Below, piece after piece: positions 29,340-40,669 of a DNA stretch of 40,669 bases. Below the pieces are notes generated by a model that did not search any database, was not told where the DNA came from, and saw only the letters and a program-made list of their open reading frames with translations. The stretch lies in IMG/VR virus record IMGVR_UViG_3300016263_000110, positions 1 through 40,669 of that record, one strand, 5' to 3'. Positions within the stretch are counted from its first letter, which is position 1. Each line of letters opens with the position of its first letter. The translations under genes and the position numbers were made by a program. Source of the stretch: a virus. Its lineage: Duplodnaviria; Caudoviricetes.

Positions 29340-29800
29340 AACAGTTAAACTGTACAGTTAAAACCCCCTTAAAGGGGTTTTAAACTACTGTACTGGAAGG
29401 GCATTAAAAATGCCCTTCACTATATACTAATCCGTCCAAAAAACAAAAGCGGACAAAAAAACACCAAAATGTTATAAAAAACCCACAATTGTTACCAAAC
29501 CGTAACCAAACTGTCTGTCACACAAATATAAAAACCGAGATACACACAGGTATCAATCTGTAATTTAATAACCCTGGGTTCATACTGTACCGTCACAAGT
29601 CCCACCCGACAGACCACAGTCTGCCAGTGTAACGGTGTGACATTGTTGGTTTGTACTTTGTGTCTTCGTTGGTGTGCCGCCAAGAGTCTACCAGATGGCT
29701 AGCCTAAAATGAACTTGTCAAGCAACTTGTTCAGTCGCGTCGTCCCTAATGGACGCCGCGAGACTTCTCTGCATTGCTTCGACAAGGGCTAGCCCTCTGG
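29340..29800. other. Divergent control region with clustered inverted repeats (candidate origin, packaging site or genome terminus)
   Basis: Hairpins at 29352-29393, 29396-29418 and 29736-29760; palindrome AGGGCTAGCCCT at 29785-29796; abrupt AC-rich to GT-rich switch near 29625. Confidence 0.55.
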
Positions 29801-29832
29801 TTGTGTTTGTTGGCAGATGAAAGGAGGAAGGT

Positions 29833-30018
29833 ATGGATTACAGAAAGTTTGTTTTCTGTTATCAATGTGATGCACATGTTGAAGTAAAGTTTCAACCTGC
29901 TATTGAACATTATGTTCATACATGTCATTGCCCGCTTTGCAAAGGTCCTATGAGCATGTCTTGGCATGATTATGAAGATTATTGCAATACGGAAAATTGC
30001 CCCAATTCATTTTCATGA
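29833..30018 (+). CDS. Small Cys/His-rich early protein
   Basis: AAGGAGGAAGG RBS; CYQC, CHCPLC and CNTENC motifs. Confidence 0.7.
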   Translation: MDYRKFVFCYQCDAHVEVKFQPAIEHYVHTCHCPLCKGPMSMSWHDYEDYCNTENCPNSFS

Positions 30019-30033
30019 TAACCAAATTGGTTA

Positions 30034-30068
30034 TTGGTCACGCTGTCGTAAACGGTCAGCGTGACCAA
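30034..30068 (+). promoter_or_regulatory. 12-bp stem-loop upstream of an early gene
   Basis: TTGGTCACGCTG...CAGCGTGACCAA, preceded by the palindrome TAACCAA-A-TTGGTTA. Confidence 0.55.
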
Positions 30069-30093
30069 AGTATATATCAGGAGGAAAGTAAGT

Positions 30094-30474
30094 ATGTATA
30101 CAGTAAATAAGCAAGATGATAGATTACCATCGTTACCTGATGGTGTTGCAAAAGTAAGTTTCGGTGTTACCAGTAAAGGTGGTAAGAAACTTATTTTGGA
30201 TGTTCCTACTTGGTTGATGGGTTATACCAAGTCTGGTGCTCCTCGTCCTACTACCAGGAACAAAAGGTTACAAACAAGTGACTCTGAAATGGTTGCTAAG
30301 TTTGAACATATTATTGAGTCTGGTTGGTTTGAATTGGATTCTCAAGGTAATCATATTGTTAAGTTAGTTAACATTAGTTATTTTGATAATTCTTTCCAGA
30401 CTCAAGATAAGTCTTGGATTAGTTTTAGTCAACTTGTTTCTGCTGATATTGCTCCAGTTGACGGTCAACACTAA
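30094..30474 (+). CDS. Hypothetical early protein (beta-rich)
   Basis: AGGAGG RBS before ATG 30094. Confidence 0.7.
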   Translation: MYTVNKQDDRLPSLPDGVAKVSFGVTSKGGKKLILDVPTWLMGYTKSGAPRPTTRNKRLQTSDSEMVAKFEHIIESGWFELDSQGNHIVKLVNISYFDNSFQTQDKSWISFSQLVSADIAPVDGQH

Positions 30475-30794
30475 TGTTTCTTGACTTTGTTGTAGACATT
30501 GCCCACTCAGAACATTGTTTTGAGTGGGACAGATGTGATGACTGTTGGGAAGACCAGGTGGTCAAGAATATCTATCAACCTGAGCCAGTTGATGCTGAGA
30601 TGGTTGGTCGTGATTCTCTTCAAGATGACCCTTTATATGCAGGTTATTCTGTTGCTGATAGAAAGTTCCAAATGTTAGATATGTCAGAAAGTATTTCTGA
30701 TTTAGATGTTTGGAATTTCTACAAAACTCAGGTTGTTTGTAAAGTTTGTAATCTTTACTACAATTCTAGGTTAGGTTATTGTTACAATTGTTAG
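30474..30794 (+). CDS. Acidic Cys-rich hypothetical protein
   Basis: TAATG coupling; CDDC, CKVC and CYNC motifs. Confidence 0.7.
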   Translation: MFLDFVVDIAHSEHCFEWDRCDDCWEDQVVKNIYQPEPVDAEMVGRDSLQDDPLYAGYSVADRKFQMLDMSESISDLDVWNFYKTQVVCKVCNLYYNSRLGYCYNC

Positions 30795-30800
30795 GTGCTT

Positions 30801-30849
30801 GTGCTAGGCATGGCTTCGCGGTCATGCCTAGCACTTGTATATTTTTTTT
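30801..30849 (+). terminator. Intrinsic terminator-like hairpin
   Basis: GTGCTAGGCATGGC-TTCGCG-GTCATGCCTAGCAC then TTGTATATTTTTTTT. Confidence 0.65.
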
Positions 30850-30898
30850 ACGCAGGTGCTTTTGTTTGTACCTAGGATAACGACAAGTGGAGGTTTGT

Positions 30899-31144
30899 GT
30901 GGTTGATGATAGGAAGTTGGCGTGGGTTGGTTTGAATAATGCGTTGGCTCGTGTGAATAATGCGTTGTCTTCGTTGGGTGGTATTCCTAGTTTGGGGGAT
31001 GAGGATGGTTTGTTTCCTGATTCTTTGGATTCTTTTATTGGTCTTGTTGAGTTGGATTTGGTTCGTATCCGTGTTCAACTTGAGAATACTATTGGTAAAT
31101 TAGAGAAGGAGATTAAGGCAAATGATTTGTCTGTTTTGCAATGA
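30899..31144 (+). CDS. Hypothetical coiled-coil protein
   Basis: GGAGG RBS before GTG 30899. Confidence 0.6.
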   Translation: MVDDRKLAWVGLNNALARVNNALSSLGGIPSLGDEDGLFPDSLDSFIGLVELDLVRIRVQLENTIGKLEKEIKANDLSVLQ

Positions 31145-31319
31145 TAAGGGTACCGTTATATATACTTTATCTCCTGATGAGTGGCGTCGCGTTCCTTGCA
31201 ACATTTGCAATGCCCACTCCCATCACTGGTCTACTGATGAGTGGTATGGGGATTGGTTTTTTTGCACTGAGTGTGATTTGGTTCGCAATTCGCAAGACAA
31301 CACGGTTCAAATAGGTTAA
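31122..31319 (+). CDS. Small Zn-finger protein
   Basis: CLFC, CNIC and CTEC motifs. Confidence 0.6.
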   Translation: MICLFCNDKGTVIYTLSPDEWRRVPCNICNAHSHHWSTDEWYGDWFFCTECDLVRNSQDNTVQIG

Positions 31320-31328
31320 GGAGAATAT

Positions 31329-31589
31329 ATGAGTATGGATATTGAGTGGGATTATGACAAGTCTATTAATGTTCCTGTCCCTTTTGAGGGTACTAAGGAG
31401 CAGATTATGGCTAACTTTAAGTCTCATAATTTTACTTGGGGTGATGACGAGTTTGATGCTCGTTGTTCTGAGTGTGATTGTAGACCGTCTCATGCTGCGG
31501 CTCATTACCCTTGCGGCAATGAGCCTCCACGTAAGATGCGTTACATTAAGGATGGTGTGATAGTTATGGAGAGAAGGATAGATGAGTAA
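31329..31589 (+). CDS. Hypothetical protein (CxxC)
   Basis: AAGGAG RBS. Confidence 0.65.
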   Translation: MSMDIEWDYDKSINVPVPFEGTKEQIMANFKSHNFTWGDDEFDARCSECDCRPSHAAAHYPCGNEPPRKMRYIKDGVIVMERRIDE

Positions 31590-31821
31590 TACTATTGAGT
31601 TTAAATTACTGCCTCATGAGTTGAAGAATATTTCTTTCTACTTTATCTGTAATGTTATTGATAATGTTATGGCTAAGGCTGATGTTGATGGTGAATACAA
31701 GTGGGGTAAGGAGGATGCTTCTCATTTGATTGTGTCTTCTATTGATACTATTCGTGGCTTGGATGATGATGTGTGGTCTGCGTTGCGTGATAGTTTATTG
31801 GAAAGATATAAGGGAAGATAG
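31582..31821 (+). CDS. Hypothetical protein
   Basis: GAAGGA RBS; overlaps the upstream gene. Confidence 0.65.
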   Translation: MSNTIEFKLLPHELKNISFYFICNVIDNVMAKADVDGEYKWGKEDASHLIVSSIDTIRGLDDDVWSALRDSLLERYKGR

Positions 31822-31824
31822 ATA

Positions 31825-31983
31825 ATGATTACAGTAAAAGACATAATTAAATATAAAAAAGCCATAGATAAAGTGTGGTTACCTTTATTAAAAGATAGTC
31901 CTGACTCTAAAGAAACAAAAGTGTGGAGTGAGATGTTTGACTATTTTGATTATCTGCTAGTAACAGGTAGATATGATGACTAA
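31825..31983 (+). CDS. Hypothetical protein, 52 aa (MITVKDIIKY...RYDD)
   Basis: Hand-translated; AGGGAAG upstream. Confidence 0.55.
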   Translation: MITVKDIIKYKKAIDKVWLPLLKDSPDSKETKVWSEMFDYFDYLLVTGRYDD

Positions 31984-32006
31984 AAAGTTTCTGGTTAACG
32001 ATGTCC

Positions 32007-32040
32007 TTGACACTGACAAGTGAGCAAGAGCCTCTAAGTT
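32007..32040 (+). promoter_or_regulatory. Putative housekeeping-sigma promoter
   Basis: Tandem TTGACA/CTGACA; CTGACA-16 nt-TAAGTT. Confidence 0.45.
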
Positions 32041-32049
32041 AATCAGATT

Positions 32050-32237
32050 GTCTGGTCCTCAATGATAAAAGGGTAAGAGTGACGTAGTCGTGCCACCAGA
32101 TTGCTGATATCCAAGGTAGTCTTATTCCTGATACGTGCATTTGCACCATTCCTGGAATTTGTGAACCATAAGGTAGTCGAGTATACACCTGTTGACGAAT
32201 AGGTACACGCTCGTAAACCACACTGGCTATGTCAGCA
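32050..32237 (+). ncRNA. Candidate structured non-coding RNA, unknown class
   Basis: No credible ORF; two multi-stem domains; bracketed by a promoter-like sequence and a terminator. Confidence 0.5.
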
Positions 32238-32239
32238 CC

Positions 32240-32278
32240 GCCCTACCTAGTGTCGTGCTAGGTAGGGCTTTAACATTT
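32240..32278 (+). terminator. Intrinsic terminator-like hairpin
   Basis: GCCCTACCTAG-TGTCGTG-CTAGGTAGGGC-TTTAACATTT. Confidence 0.65.
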
Positions 32279-32291
32279 CTATGAAGGAGGA

Positions 32292-32747
32292 ATGATGAGT
32301 AAAGGTATTAGTGTCAAAGTATCAAGAGTAAAAGTTATTGATGCTTTGATGAGTAAGTTAGATGATATGGAATATCTACAAGCAAAGTATAAGACTGATG
32401 TCGAACAGTATGAAAAAGATAGAGATGAATGGAAAGATGCTGTTGCTCAGATTGCGTTTGCTAAGTTTGATATAACATCAGCAAATAAAAAAAGTGTTGT
32501 TGTTAGAAACTGGCATAATGATGATACTACAAGAGTAGAAGTTGAAGTTCATGTGGAAAACGACAAGTTGCCTGAAGAACCACAACGTCCAAAGAATCCG
32601 TTTGAATCACGTGGTCATGGACGTGACTACATCGGTGACTATGATGATAGGAAAGCAGACATTTTGAATGCTATTCGTATCTTACAGTTATCTGATGAAG
32701 ATACTGTTAACACTGCAACATATGCATCAGTAGCAAAGTACCTGTAA
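32292..32747 (+). CDS. Hypothetical protein
   Basis: AAGGAGG RBS; 151 aa. Confidence 0.75.
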   Translation: MMSKGISVKVSRVKVIDALMSKLDDMEYLQAKYKTDVEQYEKDRDEWKDAVAQIAFAKFDITSANKKSVVVRNWHNDDTTRVEVEVHVENDKLPEEPQRPKNPFESRGHGRDYIGDYDDRKADILNAIRILQLSDEDTVNTATYASVAKYL

Positions 32748-33016
32748 TGGGAAGCAACTTTGCAACTGAGTTATCTGATAGTAAATTAGATTTAGAAACT
32801 CAGATAGGAATACATTTAACTGGTAATCATTATCCACCAGTTCCAACAAGTATGATTAACCCATGCATTGCAGCAATCAATGTCTGCAATGCAGGGATGT
32901 TTTCTACTTTAATTGCTTTACCTGATGGTATAACTTGGAGAGGTAAACCTACTGCTCCAGCATCAGCCATCGTTGAAGCACATCATTTGGAAGCATGGTT
33001 AGAAGGAGAAGAATGA
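32747..33016 (+). CDS. Hypothetical protein (HL.GNHYPPVP...HHLEAW)
   Basis: TAATG coupling; His-rich motifs. Confidence 0.7.
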   Translation: MGSNFATELSDSKLDLETQIGIHLTGNHYPPVPTSMINPCIAAINVCNAGMFSTLIALPDGITWRGKPTAPASAIVEAHHLEAWLEGEE

Positions 33017-33435
33017 TAGATACAGAAAAAGCATTAGAGGATTACACTATAACTTGTGAAAGGTATATGATTACTGATGACAAGAAAAATACTAGAGATG
33101 CTTATCTTCAACATCTTATGGAATCATATGCTGCTGAAGATTACAACAAGTTAATTGATGTCATAGGTATAGAATATATTTCTTTACCTAGTGATAATCA
33201 AAAACACTTTGCAGAGTTAACAATAGAGGTTCTTGCCTCATTGTTATTCGCTAGCAAAGACTATGATGGGTTAAGAGAATTAGTTGAAGATAAACCTTTA
33301 ACTAGTTTGATTGGCTTATTGTTATCAAGTGCTGAATTATGTGAAGAAGAACCATCATATCATAGAGAGTTTATGGAATGCTTTGGTTATTCAACAGACA
33401 AAGCAATAGACAAGGAGGGATATATAAATGCATAA
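33013..33435 (+). CDS. Hypothetical acidic helical protein
   Basis: AAGGAG RBS before ATG 33013. Confidence 0.7.
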   Translation: MIDTEKALEDYTITCERYMITDDKKNTRDAYLQHLMESYAAEDYNKLIDVIGIEYISLPSDNQKHFAELTIEVLASLLFASKDYDGLRELVEDKPLTSLIGLLLSSAELCEEEPSYHREFMECFGYSTDKAIDKEGYINA

Positions 33436-34441
33436 TCTAGAACAAATAGATGGCAAGACTGCGTTCGTGGCATACCGTGAACCAGGCTGGCATGGACTAG
33501 GTGAAGTAGTTCAAGAAGAACTAACAGCAGCAGATGCAATCAAGAAAGCAATGCTTGATTGGACTGTTGAATTACATCCAGTTCAAACTGTTGTAATGAA
33601 ACCTAACGGTGTTGAAATCGTTGAGGTTGAAGACAAGTTTGCAACTGTACGTAAACATCCATTAAAAGATAAACATGATGCATTAGGTATTGTGGGTACA
33701 AGATACACACCGATACAAAATGTGGAAGTGTTTAACTTTCTTGATGCATTAGTTGATGCAGGTTCACAATATGAAACTGCTGGTTCCATTGATGGTGGTC
33801 GTAAAGTATTTATTACTATGCGTATGCCTAATGGAATCTTAGTTGGTGGTGAAGACAAGTCAGACATGTATGTGTTTGCTACTACATCACACGATGGTTC
33901 ATTTAGTTTATCTGTAGCATTAACTGCTGTTCGTGTAGTGTGTCAAAACACTTGGCGTATGGCACGTCGTGCATCAGAATACAAACACACCATTAGACAC
34001 ACTGCTAATAGCAATAAGACTATTGCTCAAGCACGTGATGTTATGCAACTGTCATTTGAATATGGTGGTTTCTTACAAGAACAAGCAGACAAGTTAACTA
34101 AATCAACAGTAACTAATAGTGATGTTGATAAGTTCTTATCTGATTTGTTTCCGATACCTGCTGATATTCAAAAGGTTATGGGACTAAGACCATTAGAAAA
34201 GAATGAACAAAAAGTTATCACCATGATTGAGAACAAACGTAATACAATCAGCGATTTGTATTACAATTCCCCAGGTCAGACAGTTCTTGACCACAATGCA
34301 TGGCGTTTATTCAATGCAGTAACTGAGTATTCAGATTACTTTTCTTCTGTTCGTGGTAACGATACTCGTCGTGCTGAACGTGTAGTTCTAGCCGATGGTG
34401 AAGTTATCAAAGACAGAGCATTGGATTTGTTATTGCAATGA
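33428..34441 (+). CDS. DUF932 / LGT_TIGR03299-family phage-plasmid protein
   Basis: REP.WH.LG, Y.P.QN, ETAG...GG..VF, SHDG, RVVCQNT, RHT and AW...NAVTEY motifs. Confidence 0.85.
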   Translation: MHNLEQIDGKTAFVAYREPGWHGLGEVVQEELTAADAIKKAMLDWTVELHPVQTVVMKPNGVEIVEVEDKFATVRKHPLKDKHDALGIVGTRYTPIQNVEVFNFLDALVDAGSQYETAGSIDGGRKVFITMRMPNGILVGGEDKSDMYVFATTSHDGSFSLSVALTAVRVVCQNTWRMARRASEYKHTIRHTANSNKTIAQARDVMQLSFEYGGFLQEQADKLTKSTVTNSDVDKFLSDLFPIPADIQKVMGLRPLEKNEQKVITMIENKRNTISDLYYNSPGQTVLDHNAWRLFNAVTEYSDYFSSVRGNDTRRAERVVLADGEVIKDRALDLLLQ

Positions 34442-34980
34442 TAGAAGAATGGTGCTTTGCATGTCATGGTGCAGGCTTTATTCAAGTAAGTAATGTAAAC
34501 ATCGTGTGCCCAACCTGTTGTGGTATGGGCACACTCTACAAAGGAGGACAACAAATGTCAGAAGATGGAACAGCAACGGTTACTTTTGGTAATGGACCGT
34601 TAGATGCAGTGCAAGAAGAACTAAATAGATATAAAGAAAAAATAAAACAACAAGAAGAAACAATAGACAGTAGAAGAAATGAACTTCGTAAGTTTCAAAC
34701 TCAAGTGTTTGAGTTTTTTGATTCGCACTTTGATGCTAGTGAAGAAGAAATAACTATTCATCGTGATGAAGTCAATGAATTATTGTCAGACATCGGTGCT
34801 CAAGAACTACAACGAGAGTTTGAAGGAACAGTTACTGTTACTTTCTCATTCACTGTTAAAGCACAAGATGAAGATGAAGCAAGAAGTATAGTTGAAGATG
34901 CAGTCAGTGGTTTGGAAAACCAAATCGATGCTGGCTCTGATGATTCATATTCACAAGATGACATCAGTGTTGACCTCTAG
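34438..34980 (+). CDS. Hypothetical acidic protein with N-terminal DnaJ-type CxxCxGxG finger; strong internal start at 34555
   Basis: CFACHGAG and CPTCCGMG; AAGGAGG RBS before in-frame ATG 34555. Confidence 0.65.
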   Translation: MIEEWCFACHGAGFIQVSNVNIVCPTCCGMGTLYKGGQQMSEDGTATVTFGNGPLDAVQEELNRYKEKIKQQEETIDSRRNELRKFQTQVFEFFDSHFDASEEEITIHRDEVNELLSDIGAQELQREFEGTVTVTFSFTVKAQDEDEARSIVEDAVSGLENQIDAGSDDSYSQDDISVDL

Positions 34981-35701
34981 TCTACCAAGACTGAGACGCA
35001 ACAACGACAGGAAGACAGCAACATTATCAACACCAGATGGTAAACGTCCACTGATTGCTAACGCATTCGGTTTACCATCTGGTAAACAATACTCTTGTCC
35101 TGGTGCGACATCAGTGTGTGAAAAGATTTGTTATGCAGGTAAGTTAGAAAAAATATTTAAAGGTACTAGAGAATTACTATTAGAAAATTGGAATAACCTT
35201 CAAGGTAAAACACAAGAACAAATAGTTAGTATGCTACAAGTTATGATGGATGATTTCAAATATGAGTCTAACAAGTACAATGCAGATAAACTATTTCGTA
35301 TTCATTGGGATGGTGATTTCTTTAGTGAAGACTACACATCTGCATGGAAACAAGTAATACTAAACAATACAGATATACAATTCTGGGTATACACTAGAGT
35401 TAGAAGTGCAGCAGTTATGTTGAATAATATTTCTAATTTAAGTTTATATTTTTCAGCAGACCAAGACAATTATGATGACGCCAAGTATCTTGCGGGAGAA
35501 GATGTGCGTCTTGCGTGGTTGTCCGATACTTTCGATGAGGCAAAACAATATCTACTTGAATTGACTGGTAGACCTGGTGCTAAATGTCCTGAACAGACAC
35601 GCCAGATTCCACTCATTTCAAATGACGGTGGTGCATGCTACACTTGTGGACTATGCACACAAAACAAAACGGATATTCGTTTCTCAATAAGCAAAACGTA
35701 A
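34958..35701 (+). CDS. Gene product 88 (gp88)-like, radical-SAM-related Fe-S protein
   Basis: FGLP....SCPGAT..C..ICYA, FRIHWDGDF, FWVYTR and a C-terminal CP...CxxCxxC. Start uncertain (34958 or 34970). Confidence 0.75.
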   Translation: MTSVLTSSLPRLRRNNDRKTATLSTPDGKRPLIANAFGLPSGKQYSCPGATSVCEKICYAGKLEKIFKGTRELLLENWNNLQGKTQEQIVSMLQVMMDDFKYESNKYNADKLFRIHWDGDFFSEDYTSAWKQVILNNTDIQFWVYTRVRSAAVMLNNISNLSLYFSADQDNYDDAKYLAGEDVRLAWLSDTFDEAKQYLLELTGRPGAKCPEQTRQIPLISNDGGACYTCGLCTQNKTDIRFSISKT

Positions 35702-35709
35702 ATGACACC

Positions 35710-35746
35710 GTAGACCTATCTGCTCCTTCCTCCTGGGTAGGTCTAC
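35710..35746 (+). promoter_or_regulatory. 12-bp hairpin with a pyrimidine (anti-SD-like) loop
   Basis: GTAGACCTATCT-GCTCCTTCCTCCT-GGGTAGGTCTAC. Confidence 0.6.
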
Positions 35747-35750
35747 ACTA

Positions 35751-35957
35751 ATGATTAATATAAACGGTGAAGAATTACCTGACCATATTAGTTACTCATC
35801 ACTAACAGATTTCTTATCTTGTGGTTATATGTATTACTTGTCTAGAGTTCGACAAGTAAAAGAGATACCAGCATGGTGGTTATTCGGTGGTATATCTGTA
35901 CATAAAGCATCAGAAACATTTGACTTAGACATGTGGAAGTTGGAAAATGACAAATAG
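35751..35957 (+). CDS. N-terminal part of a PD-(D/E)XK RecB/Cas4-like exonuclease
   Basis: HISYSSL..FLSC...YYL...G..VH motif. Confidence 0.7.
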   Translation: MININGEELPDHISYSSLTDFLSCGYMYYLSRVRQVKEIPAWWLFGGISVHKASETFDLDMWKLENDK

Positions 35958-36582
35958 TTTAGAAGATATTTGGAAGAATGCTTGGACTAATACTGAAACA
36001 GAAATGCGTGACCGCATTGGTCCTAACTGGAATGAGAAAGAGTTTCGTTCTGCCAATAAACGTAAACCTGAAGACAAATCATGGTGGTATACCAATGGTT
36101 TAGAGATGCTCAAGAACTATCAGCGTTGGAGAGCAACAAGTGATTGGAAAATTTGGACAGCACCAGATGGTAAGCCAGCAATTGAATTAGTTATGCAAGT
36201 TAACTTTGGTACAGCCTTAGTTAAGATGGCATTAGATAGAATTATGCAACGACCTGATGGAGAGTTAGTCGTTCTCGACCTCAAGACTGGCTCGAGAACT
36301 CCATCTACTACATTGCAATTAGGTTTCTATTCAGTAGGTATTGAACTAACCTATGGCATCAAGCCTAAGTTTGGTTCGTACTGGATGGCTAGAAAAGGTG
36401 AACCTACCGAACCTGTAAGCCTTGAATGGTATACAAAAGATAGGTTAATACGATTAGCAGAAATGTTTAATCGAGCAAGGTATGAAGGAATGTTCATACC
36501 AAACATATCCAATTGTTCACTATGCGGATACACCGCACACTGTGAATGGTACAAGAAAGAAGAGGACAAGACGAATGTCTGA
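35947..36582 (+). CDS. C-terminal catalytic part of a PD-(D/E)XK RecB/Cas4-like exonuclease
   Basis: IE...LDR...DLKTG...QL.FY and CSLCGYTAHC motifs. Confidence 0.8.
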   Translation: MTNSLEDIWKNAWTNTETEMRDRIGPNWNEKEFRSANKRKPEDKSWWYTNGLEMLKNYQRWRATSDWKIWTAPDGKPAIELVMQVNFGTALVKMALDRIMQRPDGELVVLDLKTGSRTPSTTLQLGFYSVGIELTYGIKPKFGSYWMARKGEPTEPVSLEWYTKDRLIRLAEMFNRARYEGMFIPNISNCSLCGYTAHCEWYKKEEDKTNV

Positions 36583-37012
36583 ATCAAAAATACAGGTAAG
36601 TTTTAAATTACCTAACGGAACAATACCTTTGTTTCGTGGCGACACTGTAGAAGAAGTACAAAAGTTAGTTGAAGTTGCAACACTTTCAGAAAACTTTATA
36701 GGTACATTGGATGCATTCGCTGAAGCAGCAGGTATAAATAAATCAGCACCTGTAATTACACAAACCCAAGCAATGACAAATGTATCTCAAGCATTGGGTG
36801 CCAGTGTGATTAGTATTAATGGTGCTGCACCAACACGTCATTGTTTACATGGCAAGATGACTGCCATTGAAGGCAATGGTCAATTTGGATTGTATAAAGC
36901 CTTCTTCTGTGCTGCACCTAAAGGTGCTACAGATAAATGTGCAACCATCTATTTAAAGAAGAAAGATGCAGACTATAACAAGTTTGTAGCGGACAAGGTT
37001 GCTGCCAAGTGA
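36575..37012 (+). CDS. Hypothetical protein with C-terminal C.HG...C...C finger
   Basis: AGAGGA RBS before ATG 36575; lies between the nuclease and helicase genes, as in actinophages. Confidence 0.7.
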   Translation: MSESKIQVSFKLPNGTIPLFRGDTVEEVQKLVEVATLSENFIGTLDAFAEAAGINKSAPVITQTQAMTNVSQALGASVISINGAAPTRHCLHGKMTAIEGNGQFGLYKAFFCAAPKGATDKCATIYLKKKDADYNKFVADKVAAK

Positions 37013-37803
37013 GAACCCTTTATAGGGCTGTCAGTGGTAAGGAAGTAGGGGGAGAACCACTCCCCCTCACTTTCAAATCATTACAGCAAAATGAAATAGT
37101 TTTACGTAGAGCAGAATTAAATCTTATTGCTGGCACTCCTGGTGCTGGTAAATCTAGTATTGCATTAGCAATTGCTGTTCAGGCTAAAGTTCCTACACTT
37201 TATATGTCTGCTGATACTAATGCACACACTATGGGTATGCGTGTTGTTTCTATGGCAACAGGTATGACTCAATCTAATGCTGAACAAATATTAAAGTATG
37301 AAAAAGATAGTGCAGAAAATATTCTTAAACAATTTGATTACTTACGTTGGTCTTTTGAATCAAGTCCAACACTTACAGACATTGATGAATCTGTTCAAGC
37401 ATTTGAAACAACATGGGGAACTAGTCCAACATTAATTGTTATAGATAATCTTATGGACATAGCAATGGATGGACATGAAGAGTTCTCTGGTATGAGAGCA
37501 GCAATGAAAGAATTAAAATATCTTGCTCGTGATACTAATGCATGTGTACTAGTATTGCACCATACTAAAGAAGGATTCACTGGTACACCATGTCAACCAC
37601 GTTCAGCGATACAAGGATTAGTTAACCAAATACCTGCACTAATATTAACTATTGGTCAAGAAATAATTGGTGAATCAATTTATCTTTGTGTTGCTGCAGT
37701 GAAGAATAGATATGGTAGAGCAGATGCTACAGGTAACACATTTACTATGTTGTCATTTGACCCATCAACTATGCAGTTGAAAGATGTTATAACAAATGAT
37801 TAA
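37009..37803 (+). CDS. DnaB/RecA-fold replicative helicase
   Basis: Walker A GTPGAGKS, Walker B LIVIDN, VLHH and KNRYG motifs. Confidence 0.85.
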   Translation: MRTLYRAVSGKEVGGEPLPLTFKSLQQNEIVLRRAELNLIAGTPGAGKSSIALAIAVQAKVPTLYMSADTNAHTMGMRVVSMATGMTQSNAEQILKYEKDSAENILKQFDYLRWSFESSPTLTDIDESVQAFETTWGTSPTLIVIDNLMDIAMDGHEEFSGMRAAMKELKYLARDTNACVLVLHHTKEGFTGTPCQPRSAIQGLVNQIPALILTIGQEIIGESIYLCVAAVKNRYGRADATGNTFTMLSFDPSTMQLKDVITND

Positions 37804-37954
37804 TGACACTGAACAAGGCTACGTTGTTATTAGATGTGAACGATGTGGCATGGACGGTGGACAAGTTGCATATGGTTGGGCTATATTGTGTGACCAATGT
37901 AAACATTTAGATGACCAAGAATGGTGGGAAGATGGGAAAAGGGAAGAAAGGTAA
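37796..37954 (+). CDS. Small Zn-finger protein, 52 aa (CERC...CDQC)
   Basis: Hand-translated; overlaps the helicase stop. Confidence 0.55.
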   Translation: MINDTEQGYVVIRCERCGMDGGQVAYGWAILCDQCKHLDDQEWWEDGKREER

Positions 37955-38120
37955 GTCTTCGGGTGTCAGAAATTCTGACAGACCGAATGGTAAATCTTGG
38001 AAAAAGAATCCAAGAAAACCTAGAAAGACTGGACGCACCACTGGTGGGTACAGTCAAGCGAAGATAAAGATAAGAGCGGAGAAAAGAAATGTCACTACCT
38101 CAAGTGATAGTCTACGGTAG
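37932..38120 (+). CDS. Small basic protein (MGKGKKGK...)
   Basis: K/R/G-rich; fills the gap; start may be 37911. Confidence 0.5.
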   Translation: MGKGKKGKSSGVRNSDRPNGKSWKKNPRKPRKTGRTTGGYSQAKIKIRAEKRNVTTSSDSLR

Positions 38121-38406
38121 ATTAACCGAAGACCCAGAAGTAAAAGAAATCAACTCTAAGAAAGTATTAAACTATAGAGTTGCAGCCAATGCTAGAAAAC
38201 AAAACGAACAAGGCGAATGGGTTGATGCTGCAACTACATACCTTGATGGTTCATATTGGGGTGACTATGCTGCATCTATTGGACTTAAAAAAGGTGACGC
38301 AGTAGTTATCAATGGTGAACTTAGACAACGTTCATATGAAACTAAAGACGGAGACAAACGTACCGTCTATGAAATTAGTACAGATTCTATAGCGAAAACT
38401 AAATAA
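38089..38406 (+). CDS. ssb: Single-stranded DNA-binding protein
   Basis: GRLT.DPE, LKKGD.V...GEL.QRSYE..DG.KR motifs; lacks the acidic C-tail. Confidence 0.88.
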   Translation: MSLPQVIVYGRLTEDPEVKEINSKKVLNYRVAANARKQNEQGEWVDAATTYLDGSYWGDYAASIGLKKGDAVVINGELRQRSYETKDGDKRTVYEISTDSIAKTK

Positions 38407-38777
38407 TGAGTAGCCCCAGCAAACGTAAAGGTTCACAGGCTGAACGTGATGTTGTACAACATCTTGTACAACATGGCTGGAAGTATGCTGAACGCCGTCT
38501 TGCTGGGGATATTCACGACAAAGGTGATGTATCTGGTGTACGTGGAGTATGTATAGAGATTAAGAACCATGCCAAGATGGACTTAGCAGGATGGTTACAA
38601 GAACTTTTAGTTGAAATAGTTAACGCTAAAGCAGATACAGGTGCAGTGATACATAAACGTAAAGGCAAGTCTGATGTTGGTCAATGGTATGCAACAATGA
38701 CTGTAGATATCTGGATACAATTATTGAAAGAAGCAGGATATGAGGAAAAGATTACCAGAAAAGGATTTAAAAATTAA
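38406..38777 (+). CDS. Holliday junction resolvase (Hjc-like PD-(D/E)XK)
   Basis: K.KG...ER, D.GD and IEIKN motifs. Confidence 0.8.
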   Translation: MSSPSKRKGSQAERDVVQHLVQHGWKYAERRLAGDIHDKGDVSGVRGVCIEIKNHAKMDLAGWLQELLVEIVNAKADTGAVIHKRKGKSDVGQWYATMTVDIWIQLLKEAGYEEKITRKGFKN

Positions 38778-39129
38778 AGATGTACTCACATATTACAATG
38801 TTAAACTTCCAAACAAAACATACGGTAGACTTAGTATCTTATGTCCATTCCATAATGACAGTAAGAAATCTGCTGTCGTAGATTTCGACACGCAAAGTTT
38901 CTGTTGCTTTGCTTGTGATGTTAAAGGCGACGGATACGATTTAATACAACATAAAGAAGGAGTAAATTTTAATGAGGCTATCAGTTTCGCAGCGAGAGTT
39001 TTTAATCAAAGCAGTACAACACTACGAAAAAAACGTGGACAAAGCGTCATCCTATTTGGAAGGGAGAGGACTATCCCTTCAGGAAGTAAGTCCGTTCCAC
39101 CTGGGCGTCGTGGTAGAACCACTACCTAG
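38740..39129 (+). CDS. Primase zinc-binding (CHC2) domain protein
   Basis: CPFH.D...S...F.CFAC...GD motif. Confidence 0.85.
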   Translation: MRKRLPEKDLKIKDVLTYYNVKLPNKTYGRLSILCPFHNDSKKSAVVDFDTQSFCCFACDVKGDGYDLIQHKEGVNFNEAISFAARVFNQSSTTLRKKRGQSVILFGRERTIPSGSKSVPPGRRGRTTT

Positions 39130-39595
39130 CCATGAACAATTCGTAGGACGATTATCTATCCCATACATTACAAGAAGTGGTGTAGTAGATATAAGGTTTC
39201 GTTCTTTAGATAACAGTGAACCAAAATATATGGGAATGACAGGTGCAGAAACAACACTATACAATGTTGAATCATTTTTCCAAGCAAAAAATTATATATG
39301 TATTTGTGAAGGTGAACTAGATACATTAACCATGGCAATAAAGACGCAGCATCCTGCTGTCGGTGCACCAGGTGCTGCGTCATGGAAACAACACTATTCA
39401 AGAATACTAGAAGATTTTGATGTAGTTCTAGTGTTAGCAGATGGTGATGAAGCAGGACTGGAGTTCGGTAAAAGAATACAAAGAGCCGTGGCAAATGTGA
39501 GAATATTACAAATGCCTGAAGGTGAAGATGTAAATAGTTTAGTTCTTAAGAAAGGAACAGAGTACTTAGATGAACGAATCAAGCAAGCAATTTGA
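38972..39595 (+). CDS. Primase TOPRIM catalytic domain protein
   Basis: RL.IPY, FR, KY, CEGELD, DGDEAG and EDVN motifs; GAAGGAG RBS. Confidence 0.88.
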   Translation: MRLSVSQREFLIKAVQHYEKNVDKASSYLEGRGLSLQEVSPFHLGVVVEPLPSHEQFVGRLSIPYITRSGVVDIRFRSLDNSEPKYMGMTGAETTLYNVESFFQAKNYICICEGELDTLTMAIKTQHPAVGAPGAASWKQHYSRILEDFDVVLVLADGDEAGLEFGKRIQRAVANVRILQMPEGEDVNSLVLKKGTEYLDERIKQAI

Positions 39596-39866
39596 ATCTA
39601 TCTTTGATTTAATTGAAGATAAAGAAATAAATATACCAGCAGTACAATTAAAGAATGGTGCAGTAGTAAATATATTAAAAGCATTAACAGATATCTATAA
39701 TGATTTAGATGATGTTAACAATATTAATAATGTTAGAATGGATATAGATTTATTAGCAACACTTTTATTATCTGATGAGAATGAGATAGCAAAAGATAGG
39801 TTAATAACTTGGCAAGCAAACATATTAACAAATCAATTAGAGAAAGAAATCCAAGATGCAATATGA
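39570..39866 (+). CDS. Hypothetical protein
   Basis: 98 aa, acidic; overlaps both neighbours. Confidence 0.6.
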   Translation: MNESSKQFESIFDLIEDKEINIPAVQLKNGAVVNILKALTDIYNDLDDVNNINNVRMDIDLLATLLLSDENEIAKDRLITWQANILTNQLEKEIQDAI

Positions 39867-40167
39867 TATCGAGAAGTTTAAAGATGAATCGATGGCTATC
39901 TATGATGAGGCATGGAATCTACTAGTACAAAAACAAATAGATTACGGACCATACAATATTGCAAACGCACCAGGAGGACCATTAAATGGTCTGATGGTGC
40001 GGATGCACGACAAGATGGCAAGATTAAATAACTTAGTATATGTAGTTAAAGACACGCCAAAGAACGAGTCGATAGAAGATTCTTTCATAGACCTGCTAAA
40101 CTATTCAGCAATTGCTCTAATGGTACTTCGTGGCAAATGGTCAGGAGTTCCTCGTCAGCCAGACTAA
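39856..40167 (+). CDS. Nucleotide-modification-associated domain 1 (DUF1599-like, MazG-related helical fold)
   Basis: K..DYG..NI...R..DK..RL...ES..D...DL.NY motifs. Confidence 0.8.
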   Translation: MQYDIEKFKDESMAIYDEAWNLLVQKQIDYGPYNIANAPGGPLNGLMVRMHDKMARLNNLVYVVKDTPKNESIEDSFIDLLNYSAIALMVLRGKWSGVPRQPD

Positions 40168-40186
40168 AACAAAACAATAAAGTTAT

Positions 40187-40669
40187 ATGGACAAAACATA
40201 CATATTAGATTACACAGCAATAGTTAAACTAATATCATACGAGTATTCTCAGCGTTATCGCATGATAGATAGAGACGATATCAGTCAAGAGTTATGGCTA
40301 TGGTTTGCATCCAGACCTAATAAAGTTAAAGACTGGTATGAAAACTTTGAACAAAAAGACAGAGACAAACTCATAGCCAAATCATTACGTAATGCTGCAT
40401 TAAAGTTTTGCACTAGAGAAAAAGCAAAAATAGCAGGTTATGAAGTACAAGATAATTTCTACTATCAACCAGAAGTTATTGAAGAGTTTCTTCCATACAT
40501 ATTAACTGGTTCTTATATGATGCCAACAGGTGTTAATGATGTTAACTACAAGCCAGATAGAAACTCTGTAGCAGAGTCTAATACTTGGCTGGCTGTACGT
40601 GCAGACATATCTGAAGCCTTTGATTGTGTAGAAGAAAGACATCAGAATGTGTTAAGACTTAGGTTTAAC
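40187..40669 (+). CDS. Sigma-70-like factor, N-terminal part (continues at 1-156; 212 aa total)
   Basis: DDISQELWLW region-2-like segment; open to the window end and in frame with position 1. Confidence 0.8.
   Translation, partial: MDKTYILDYTAIVKLISYEYSQRYRMIDRDDISQELWLWFASRPNKVKDWYENFEQKDRDKLIAKSLRNAALKFCTREKAKIAGYEVQDNFYYQPEVIEEFLPYILTGSYMMPTGVNDVNYKPDRNSVAESNTWLAVRADISEAFDCVEERHQNVLRLRFN

Follow-up and report, generated by a model that had tools for sequence, protein, structure and literature searches.

What is encoded between positions 31983 and 32292 of this virus sequence, where the plus strand has no ORF of at least 40 amino acids? The first-pass annotation, which had likewise seen no credible ORF here, proposed a single noncoding RNA gene composed of a promoter, two structured domains, and a terminator. 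A 60-amino-acid ORF on the minus strand (32039–32221) was rejected as not credible, because a 53-nt deletion found in lake contigs would shift its frame. We find that positions 31990–32268 (+) are a cassette of separately folding modules, A, B, and C, with two arms and a closing hairpin. The modules are real, plus-strand, and uncatalogued RNA elements, for which we infer a function below.

The window (the whole stretch of DNA that was analyzed, 40,669 nt) is a virus record rated complete. Its terminase, portal, and capsid genes are located on the minus strand, and a plus-strand early/replication arm encodes DUF932, GP88, a PD-(D/E)XK nuclease, a DnaB-like helicase, a single-stranded DNA-binding protein (SSB), and a primase, together with a sub-threshold match to gp49 of L5/D29. 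The sequencing runs in which the window is best represented are from freshwater, reservoir, or aquatic samples. WhiB has no match in the window itself; it is encoded in 30 of the 37 records examined (36 carriers of module B and one close relative), from which we infer that the host is an actinobacterium.

A cassette of plus-strand RNA modules

The plus strand of the region folds better than the minus strand (z of -4.7 vs. -2.6), and folding of 31986–32280 yields the same modular picture. We rejected the folding z-score as proof of an RNA, since coding windows of the same arm reach z of -4 to -6; because the z-score alone is weak, we relied on comparison with relatives. Coding windows at 30000–40400 (+) often fold far better than dinucleotide shuffles (z of -4 or lower in 7 of 19 other sampled 200-nt windows of the arm; for example, -6.3 at 33121), which suggests selection for structured early mRNA. 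A strongly folded leader (29690–29805, +; z of -6.3) is situated just before the ribosome-binding site (RBS) of the first early ORF (29833) and has no homolog among the fetched loci.

All motifs named in the first-pass annotation are present at the coordinates given there: CTGACA at 32013 with a 16-nt spacer to TAAGTT at 32035, the closing arms of its first domain (GTCTGGT at 32050 and ACCAGAT at 32095) and of its second domain (TGCTGATAT at 32102 and ATGTCAGCA at 32229), the word AAGGTAGTC repeated at 32113 and 32170, the inner hairpin at 32135, and the CGAGT/GCTCG and ACCTGTT/AATAGGT stems. Homologs with covarying pairs were found for all three modules, with two-sided changes in 14 of 17 pairs of B, 7 of 16 core pairs of C, and 3 of 17 pairs of A.

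Module B (32050–32101, +) is a 52-nt three-way junction that is present as a single copy in the window and matches its model with 60.7 bits. It consists of helix P1 (32050–32056/32095–32101, +), helix P2 (32057–32059/32070–32072, +) with the loop CAAUGAUA-AA, the unpaired junction GUAAGA (32073–32078, +), helix P3 (32079–32083/32090–32093, +) with the loop GUAGUC, and a single C as linker (32094, +). A search with the loop pattern returned 83 viral and 98 metagenome matches, and a search with fixed spacing returned 166 matches comprising 91 distinct 60-mers, 90 of which pass a loose pairing filter. Across these 90 distinct sequences from freshwater phages and metagenomes, 91.4 per cent of the cells are paired, vs. 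71.4 per cent in shuffled and 31–48 per cent in slid controls; the covariation counts refer to sequences and not to independent events. In 84 of the 90 sequences (six rows with a 1-nt shift are omitted), G–U cells outnumber A–C cells by 71 to 6, and this excess marks the plus strand and RNA as the level of selection, in line with the earlier suggestion.

The unpaired parts of B are conserved even when the search does not demand it. Specifically, with loop 2 left free, 51 of 52 matches keep both stems, and all 51 read CAATGATA, so that the loop CAAUGAUA is invariant (51 of 51). When the junction and loop 3 are instead unconstrained, 51 of the 56 matches are structured, and all of these read GTAAG(A/G) and GTAGTC; among the other five, two have a 3-nt insert in loop 3 and three are chance matches. 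The J3/1 linker is a single pyrimidine (C in 82 and U in 2 of the 90 sequences). B is an RNA of about 45 nt with conservation of the grade seen in riboswitches or ribozymes.

Module A (31990–32047, +) is a hairpin with eight aligned homologs, a closing helix of 10 bp (31990–31999/32038–32047), conserved internal loops, an inner CYUG/CARG and CAC/GUG stem, and a variable apical loop. The RNA region proposed earlier is real, with a start located about 17 nt farther upstream than had been assigned. Of the cells of A, 98 per cent are paired, in a covariation set of only seven distinct and closely related rows; two of its three two-sided pairs belong to the outer helix, and the source of these outer-helix changes could be recombination with the arms of B. 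The hexamers once read as a promoter (CTGACA-N16-TAAGTT) fall within this covarying hairpin. CTGACA lies in its variable loop, and three of the eight aligned homologs lack the loop sequence yet keep the fold; a promoter scan calls none here, and we rejected a sigma-70 promoter at 32013–32040. Five matches to GATGTCC..GTGAGCA, plus locus L107, were dropped as chance because the closing helix of A is missing from them.

Scaffold C (32102–32237, +) is closed by an outer helix (32102–32110/32229–32237), within which a CNA/UNG helix (32111–32113/32224–32226, +) is followed by an A x AYAC internal loop, GG/CC pairs, and an exchangeable arm. The outer helix is kept in 19 distinct loci; another 9 of the 28 distinct pattern matches were dropped because they lack it. 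Among the 19, the middle pair of CNA/UNG occurs in all four Watson–Crick forms (TA in 11, GC in 5, CG in 2, and AT in 1), and 96.7 per cent of the core cells are paired in the 17 loci aligned. The exchangeable arm can be an ACACACA hairpin, the whole of B, a short GCAAUUCGCC hairpin (L300 and L313), or, in the window, arms 1 and 2; the repeated word AAGGTAGTC is the socket of each arm. Arm 1 (32115–32167, +), as folded, has a GG-UAGU/UGAA-CC internal loop, an AUUCC/GGAAU stem, and the inner GUGC/GCAC hairpin. Its socket, GGUAGUC..GUGAACC, bears a different insert in L300 and L313, and the insert itself has no homolog among the fetched loci. Arm 2 (module D; 32170–32221, +; 52 nt, optional) is a second AAGGUAGUC..UAAACC unit with the CGAGU/GCUCG and ACCUGUU/AAUAGGU stems, and one contig of run X3 carries a compensatory change in it (G32179A and C32212T). 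A short GCAAUUCGCC-type hairpin, module M, forms the arm of C in L300 (290–342) and L313 (1201–1253) and is found alone beside module J in other phages (L089, L090, and L169).

The cassette ends with a hairpin of 12 bp (32240–32268, +) before the RBS. It had been taken for a terminator; only three U residues follow it, a terminator scan does not call it, and it shows a compensatory change (A32245G and T32263C) in X5 and X11. This hairpin is kept in close relatives, and a different hairpin takes its place in L026, L300, and L313.

Turnover of the modules and the settings of B

The modules come and go independently of each other, which, together with the location of the supposed promoter inside module A, is at odds with a single promoter–RNA–terminator gene. 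Close relatives, fetched via the DUF932 gene, match the region in separate pieces. We also compared the region with lake contigs from eight public runs. B is flanked by a 7-nt direct repeat, CAGATTG (32044–32050 and 32097–32103, +), and a deletion of 53 nt between the two copies (32044–32096) removes it; the joint 32043->32097, with seven shared letters, is found in X2, X4, X5, and X11. Arm 2 is deleted (32170–32221, 52 nt, with one T in its place) in contigs of five of the eight runs (X18, X4, X3, X5, and X7) and is present in X11 and in one X3 contig. The two deletions are independent: B is retained and D missing in X7 and X18, the reverse holds in X11, and the window contains both modules. 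Because the ATAAG strand is lost with arm 2, the CTTAT/ATAAG helix drawn in the first-pass annotation cannot form in these strains, and we rejected it; of the earlier two-domain scheme, B and the outer helix of C were borne out, and the CTTAT/ATAAG junction was not. Run X18, the only metatranscriptome in which the region is represented, has contigs that also cover the flanking genes; its depth, being that of contigs, was not taken as a sign of expression. Runs X19 and X20 have a small share only.

The same independence is seen among relatives. The 19 loci of scaffold C include three with both A and B, four with A only, three with B only, three with neither, and six with B inside C, where it serves as an arm; A is thus present in seven. 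L103 and L144 show A and B substituted for each other within common flanks. These presence/absence and arm-swap variants of the B cassette are natural controls, and B is small enough for synthesis.

B occurs exactly once in each of the 36 records that carry it, which range from 13 to 118 kb and include those of 85–118 kb; because only 10 of the 36 carriers are near complete, this count is a lower bound. It is missing from one complete close relative, and its carriers represent several unrelated phage groups of abundant lake bacteria. The exact pattern of B has no match in 185,579 GTDB genomes, and its model found no convincing copy in sets of 5, 151, and 8 actinobacterial-type genomes, which possibly do not include the true hosts. 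One bacterial match of 25.6 bits was rejected because it lacks the conserved loops; true copies score at least 60 bits. Searches of cultured phages with the region and with B (blastn) gave chance matches only.

The surroundings of B vary. In 17 of 91 nonredundant contexts (vs. 12 of 452 in the control), the first helix of B begins 5–6 nt past a -10 box. B also often lies directly before an A/C-rich linker and an RBS; an RBS-like site with a start codon follows within 90 nt in 63 of 91 contexts by a loose pattern scored without a control. Elsewhere, B lies between a gene and a U-tract terminator (L033, L172, and L136) or is followed by a fresh promoter (L167, L032, and L024). The terminators found begin 6–57 nt past the GG/CC core of B and do not pair with P1. 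The first downstream ORFs fall into 38 blastp clusters, some of which are probably spurious.

An own conserved promoter with a U-tract terminator, as a discrete sRNA gene should have, is absent from the window and present for B in other phages. ORF-free units of about 130 nt consist of a promoter, B, a second module (K), and a U-tract terminator in L043, L045, L128, and L215; their promoter was read from the sequence and is missed by strict promoter patterns. These units are the best candidates for a discrete B-containing sRNA.

Other elements accompany B in particular loci. In the 3' end of the L033 and L172 units, before the U-tract terminator, B is preceded at about 60 nt by another structured-looking module. 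In L019, L077, and L151, an inverted pair, TTATCCACA/TGTGGATAA, which we take to resemble DnaA boxes, is found about 55 nt 3' of B, after a B–hairpin unit. A terminator-like hairpin of the window (30801–30834, +) has outer arms, GTGCTAGG/CCTAGCAC, identical to those that form P1 of B in L068 and its relatives, so that B and a plain hairpin carry the same arms. Module J, with GAGAUGCA and AGCGUAA strands, adjoins B in two circularly permuted forms (L014:1444–1474, -; L070:486–510 and L089:1457–1480, +).

Module H, a 27-nt H-type pseudoknot whose first stem covaries, adjoins B in many actinophages (for example, L016:1626–1648, L052:1546–1568, and L293:1501–1529; also L292, L294, L295, and L319) and is not found in the window. 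It occurs in 6 of 37 records in one to four copies, before genes and tRNAs. In L052, L159, L187, and L189 (4 of 20 loci scanned), tRNA genes preceded by H lie about 150 nt or less from B. H is also found between genes in Roseobacter, Lentibacter, Celeribacter, Clostridium, Lactobacillus, and C48C1 phages, one example being a site between ribonucleotide reductase and glutaredoxin genes. It has no match in Rfam and is a candidate cis element working across phyla.

The ORF directly downstream of the cassette (32292–32747, +; 151 amino acids; RBS GAAGGAGG at 32283) is an early ORF with no Pfam or PHROG match. Its predicted fold (pLDDT of 85), a long helix with a small beta and alpha part, resembles uncharacterized phage proteins only, without a named match. 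The first protein-based locus search with this ORF found nothing; the family comprises 137 clusters at 50 per cent identity and is common in early regions of actinophages of 40–118 kb. It lies near B in 65 of 221 redundant loci and is encoded in 20 of 37 records. We rejected the ORF as an obligatory protein partner of B, since only 5 of 11 near-complete records have it.

Candidate functions

Rfam 15 has no match at gathering score over the whole window, and matches over the region and its relatives L004 and L300 are at chance level (E-values of 1.9–9.7), so the search agrees with the earlier impression that no described family is represented. Over 20 B loci, Rfam finds tRNAs only, and ARAGORN finds no tRNA or tmRNA gene in the window. 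None of modules A, B, and C, whether in the window or in L004, has an Rfam match of the type III antitoxin or CRISPR-repeat kind, which speaks against the antitoxin mimic considered earlier; they do not form a tandem array of one repeated unit, and a single chance-level match to CRISPR-DR53 (E-value of 3.4) falls on the minus strand of L300, for the most part upstream of C. An rRNA mimic or ribosomal-protein leader is unsupported, as the best score of the B model on the Escherichia coli rrnH operon is 5.1 bits, and the 7-mers that A, B, and C have in common with rRNA are matched by 17, 189, and 69 of 200 shuffles and are not above chance. Among ten modules put to this 7-mer test, only the permuted J reached 1 of 200 shuffles.

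Two readings of the locus are very improbable. A riboswitch or attenuator leader serving the genes from ORF 32292 on, as had been proposed, is suggested by an aptamer-like three-way junction upstream of a hairpin and an RBS, and by the complementarity of CAUUCCU in arm 1 to AGGAAUG at the RBS and start of the ORF, as read from the sequence. This complementarity is lost in relatives with other arms. Riboswitches would be expected at a fixed place before related genes, and B precedes 38 clusters of first downstream ORFs, lies also 3' of genes, before terminators, before fresh promoters, and nested in C, and has no copy in the host-type genomes searched. No expression platform overlapping B and no switching helix was found, as the P1 flanks vary freely and never overlap or pair with the terminators found. 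With neither a fixed gene nor a platform, we regard the riboswitch as very unlikely. Slightly less credible still is that the elements act as DNA (as cruciforms, recombination sites, or protein-binding sites) or are chance folds. The short repeats that bound the modules and the good folding of the arm throughout would suit this explanation; the 71 G–U vs. 6 A–C cells, a three-way junction with invariant loops, and covariation of B far above the shuffled and slid controls are evidence against it.

Three alternatives remain, and we consider each of them unlikely. B, and perhaps A, C, and J, would in one of them be a new class of small self-cleaving ribozymes that process early transcripts and leave ends that alter their stability. 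This would fit a three-way junction of about 45 nt with invariant unpaired cores that works in many positions, the tRNA genes beside B and H in 4 of 20 loci, and the two permuted forms of J. The core blocks of the hammerhead ribozyme are CUGANGA and GAAA, and CUGANGA is absent from the cassette, from three relatives, and from 90 of 90 B sequences. For twister, we required a UNNNAAGY loop closed by a helix together with UAA and GAG blocks; UGACAAGU in A was rejected, since it is closed by 1 bp only, is absent in L007, and has no Rfam match. No Rfam match at an E-value of 10 or lower supports a ribozyme, B is present once per record, and a self-cleaving B nested inside C would cut its scaffold. 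For comparison with J, hammerhead and twister ribozymes, 5S rRNA, and group II introns are reported to occur in naturally permuted forms in the available part of a paper in which none of 10 non-hammerhead candidates tested cleaved (PMC10085705). A little less probable is a cis stabilizer, by which the modules would block scanning by RNase J or RNase E or the action of 3' exonucleases and so shield early mRNAs. The predicted +1 position of B (17 of 91 contexts), its place before RBS linkers, the tandem stacking of modules before a gene, the occupation of the same arms by B and a plain hairpin, and the unusually folded coding regions of the arm point this way. A barrier of this kind would be expected in several copies and with some freedom in its loops, whereas B is single-copy with invariant loops and also precedes terminators and new promoters, where no downstream RNA would need shielding; the stabilizer reading fits H better than B. 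The least probable of the three has B acting like put. The put RNA of HK022 is a nascent RNA that binds RNA polymerase and causes read-through, and B would likewise bind host polymerase and allow read-through of early terminators. The early location, the +1 position in the same 17 contexts, the terminators soon after B in several loci, and a conserved host target that would explain the invariance are in its favor. Against it, large phages with several early promoters have one copy of B, which often ends a unit with a new promoter next; population variants, and a complete close relative as well, lack B. Were B a cis barrier or antiterminator, copies would be expected at several early units; H recurs and B does not, and a trans-acting payload fits B better.

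We therefore return to the decoy-type role that the first-pass annotation had listed and that we retain as the leading explanation, at a confidence just short of even: the cassette modules may be trans-acting decoys that titrate a conserved host factor early in infection. B is single-copy, position-independent, and optional, and its loops are invariant; hence, a trans-binding payload fits best. The cassette would be transcribed within the early-arm mRNA and would probably survive as a stable fragment, and its modules would move by recombination between short common helix ends. The invariant loops and junction of B may make up a binding pocket, which a contact of GAUA in loop 2 with UA(G)UC in loop 3 might close; because both loops are invariant, this contact has no covariation behind it, and two B variants insert 3 nt where the bulged G of UA(G)UC would lie. 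As the target, a core component of the host would be expected, most probably a protein that serves transcription, translation, or RNA decay; a nucleotide signal is the alternative. According to the accessible part of PMC12143481, defence systems are few in streamlined freshwater hosts, which makes a core host factor likelier than a patchily distributed immune protein. Several observations weigh against the decoy: invariant loops would be equally at home in a catalytic core, the frequent place of B before an A/C-rich linker and RBS suits a cis role, and a barrier function is hinted at by the plain hairpin that has the same arms as B. More speculatively, and in our estimation doubtful, freshwater actinophages may draw on an accessory pool of RNA domains of 30–60 nt (B, A, C, J, H, K, and M) that recombine via helix ends, plug into one another as arms, and act in the first transcripts as aptamers or ribozymes against core host machinery, with B founding a new aptamer or catalytic class. 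If the decoy reading is true, phages use a modular RNA toolkit for the takeover of streamlined cells.

Comparison with known systems

No description of the A, B, or C motifs was found in the literature searched, which includes few subscription papers. The B motifs are absent from supplement files 3–6 of PMC10690425, where an unnamed listing elsewhere is possible, and from the accessible supplement of PMC10085705, in which one word of C was found within twister alignments. The candidate RNAs from IMG/VR (Fremin et al., PMC10690425) are similar to B in being orphan, covarying, intergenic phage RNAs of about 30–150 nt; swappable cassettes are not described in the portion of that study available.

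In architecture, B resembles riboswitch aptamers such as the purine class. Purine-class riboswitch aptamers are three-way junctions, and B shares with them a junction of about 50 nt, two conserved loops, a long conserved J2/3, and a single-pyrimidine J3/1. It differs from them in lacking both an expression platform and a fixed downstream gene, and neither Rfam nor the bacterial genomes searched gave a match to it.

In the mode of action proposed here, the cassette would resemble RNA decoys. Phage pseudo-ToxI, RNA anti-CRISPRs, 6S/Ms1, and CsrB are RNA decoys or mimics. ToxI-type antitoxin repeats are another such example (PMC13728456, in its accessible part). Like these, the cassette is a folded RNA, accessory in phages, that would titrate a host factor; unlike them, it does not consist of tandem copies of one repeat and is without a match in Rfam, and the rRNA and actinobacterial-type genome searches yielded no host RNA as a template for B.

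The nearest precedent of the cassette is the early ncRNA of cluster A mycobacteriophages. In phages L5, D29, and StarStuff (Pleft and the 63–64 intergenic ncRNAs), as in the window, an ncRNA is encoded in the early arm of an actinophage, and the replication arm of the window has L5/D29-type genes (GP88 and the sub-threshold gp49 match). The cluster A ncRNAs are abundant, stable, processed, and toxic, and no covariation model of them is described in the available part of the report (PMC5712189). Compared to them, the units of the cassette are small, modular, and common to phages of 40 kb and of more than 85 kb; if the decoy reading is true, these units offer a handle on the role of the abundant early ncRNAs of actinophages.
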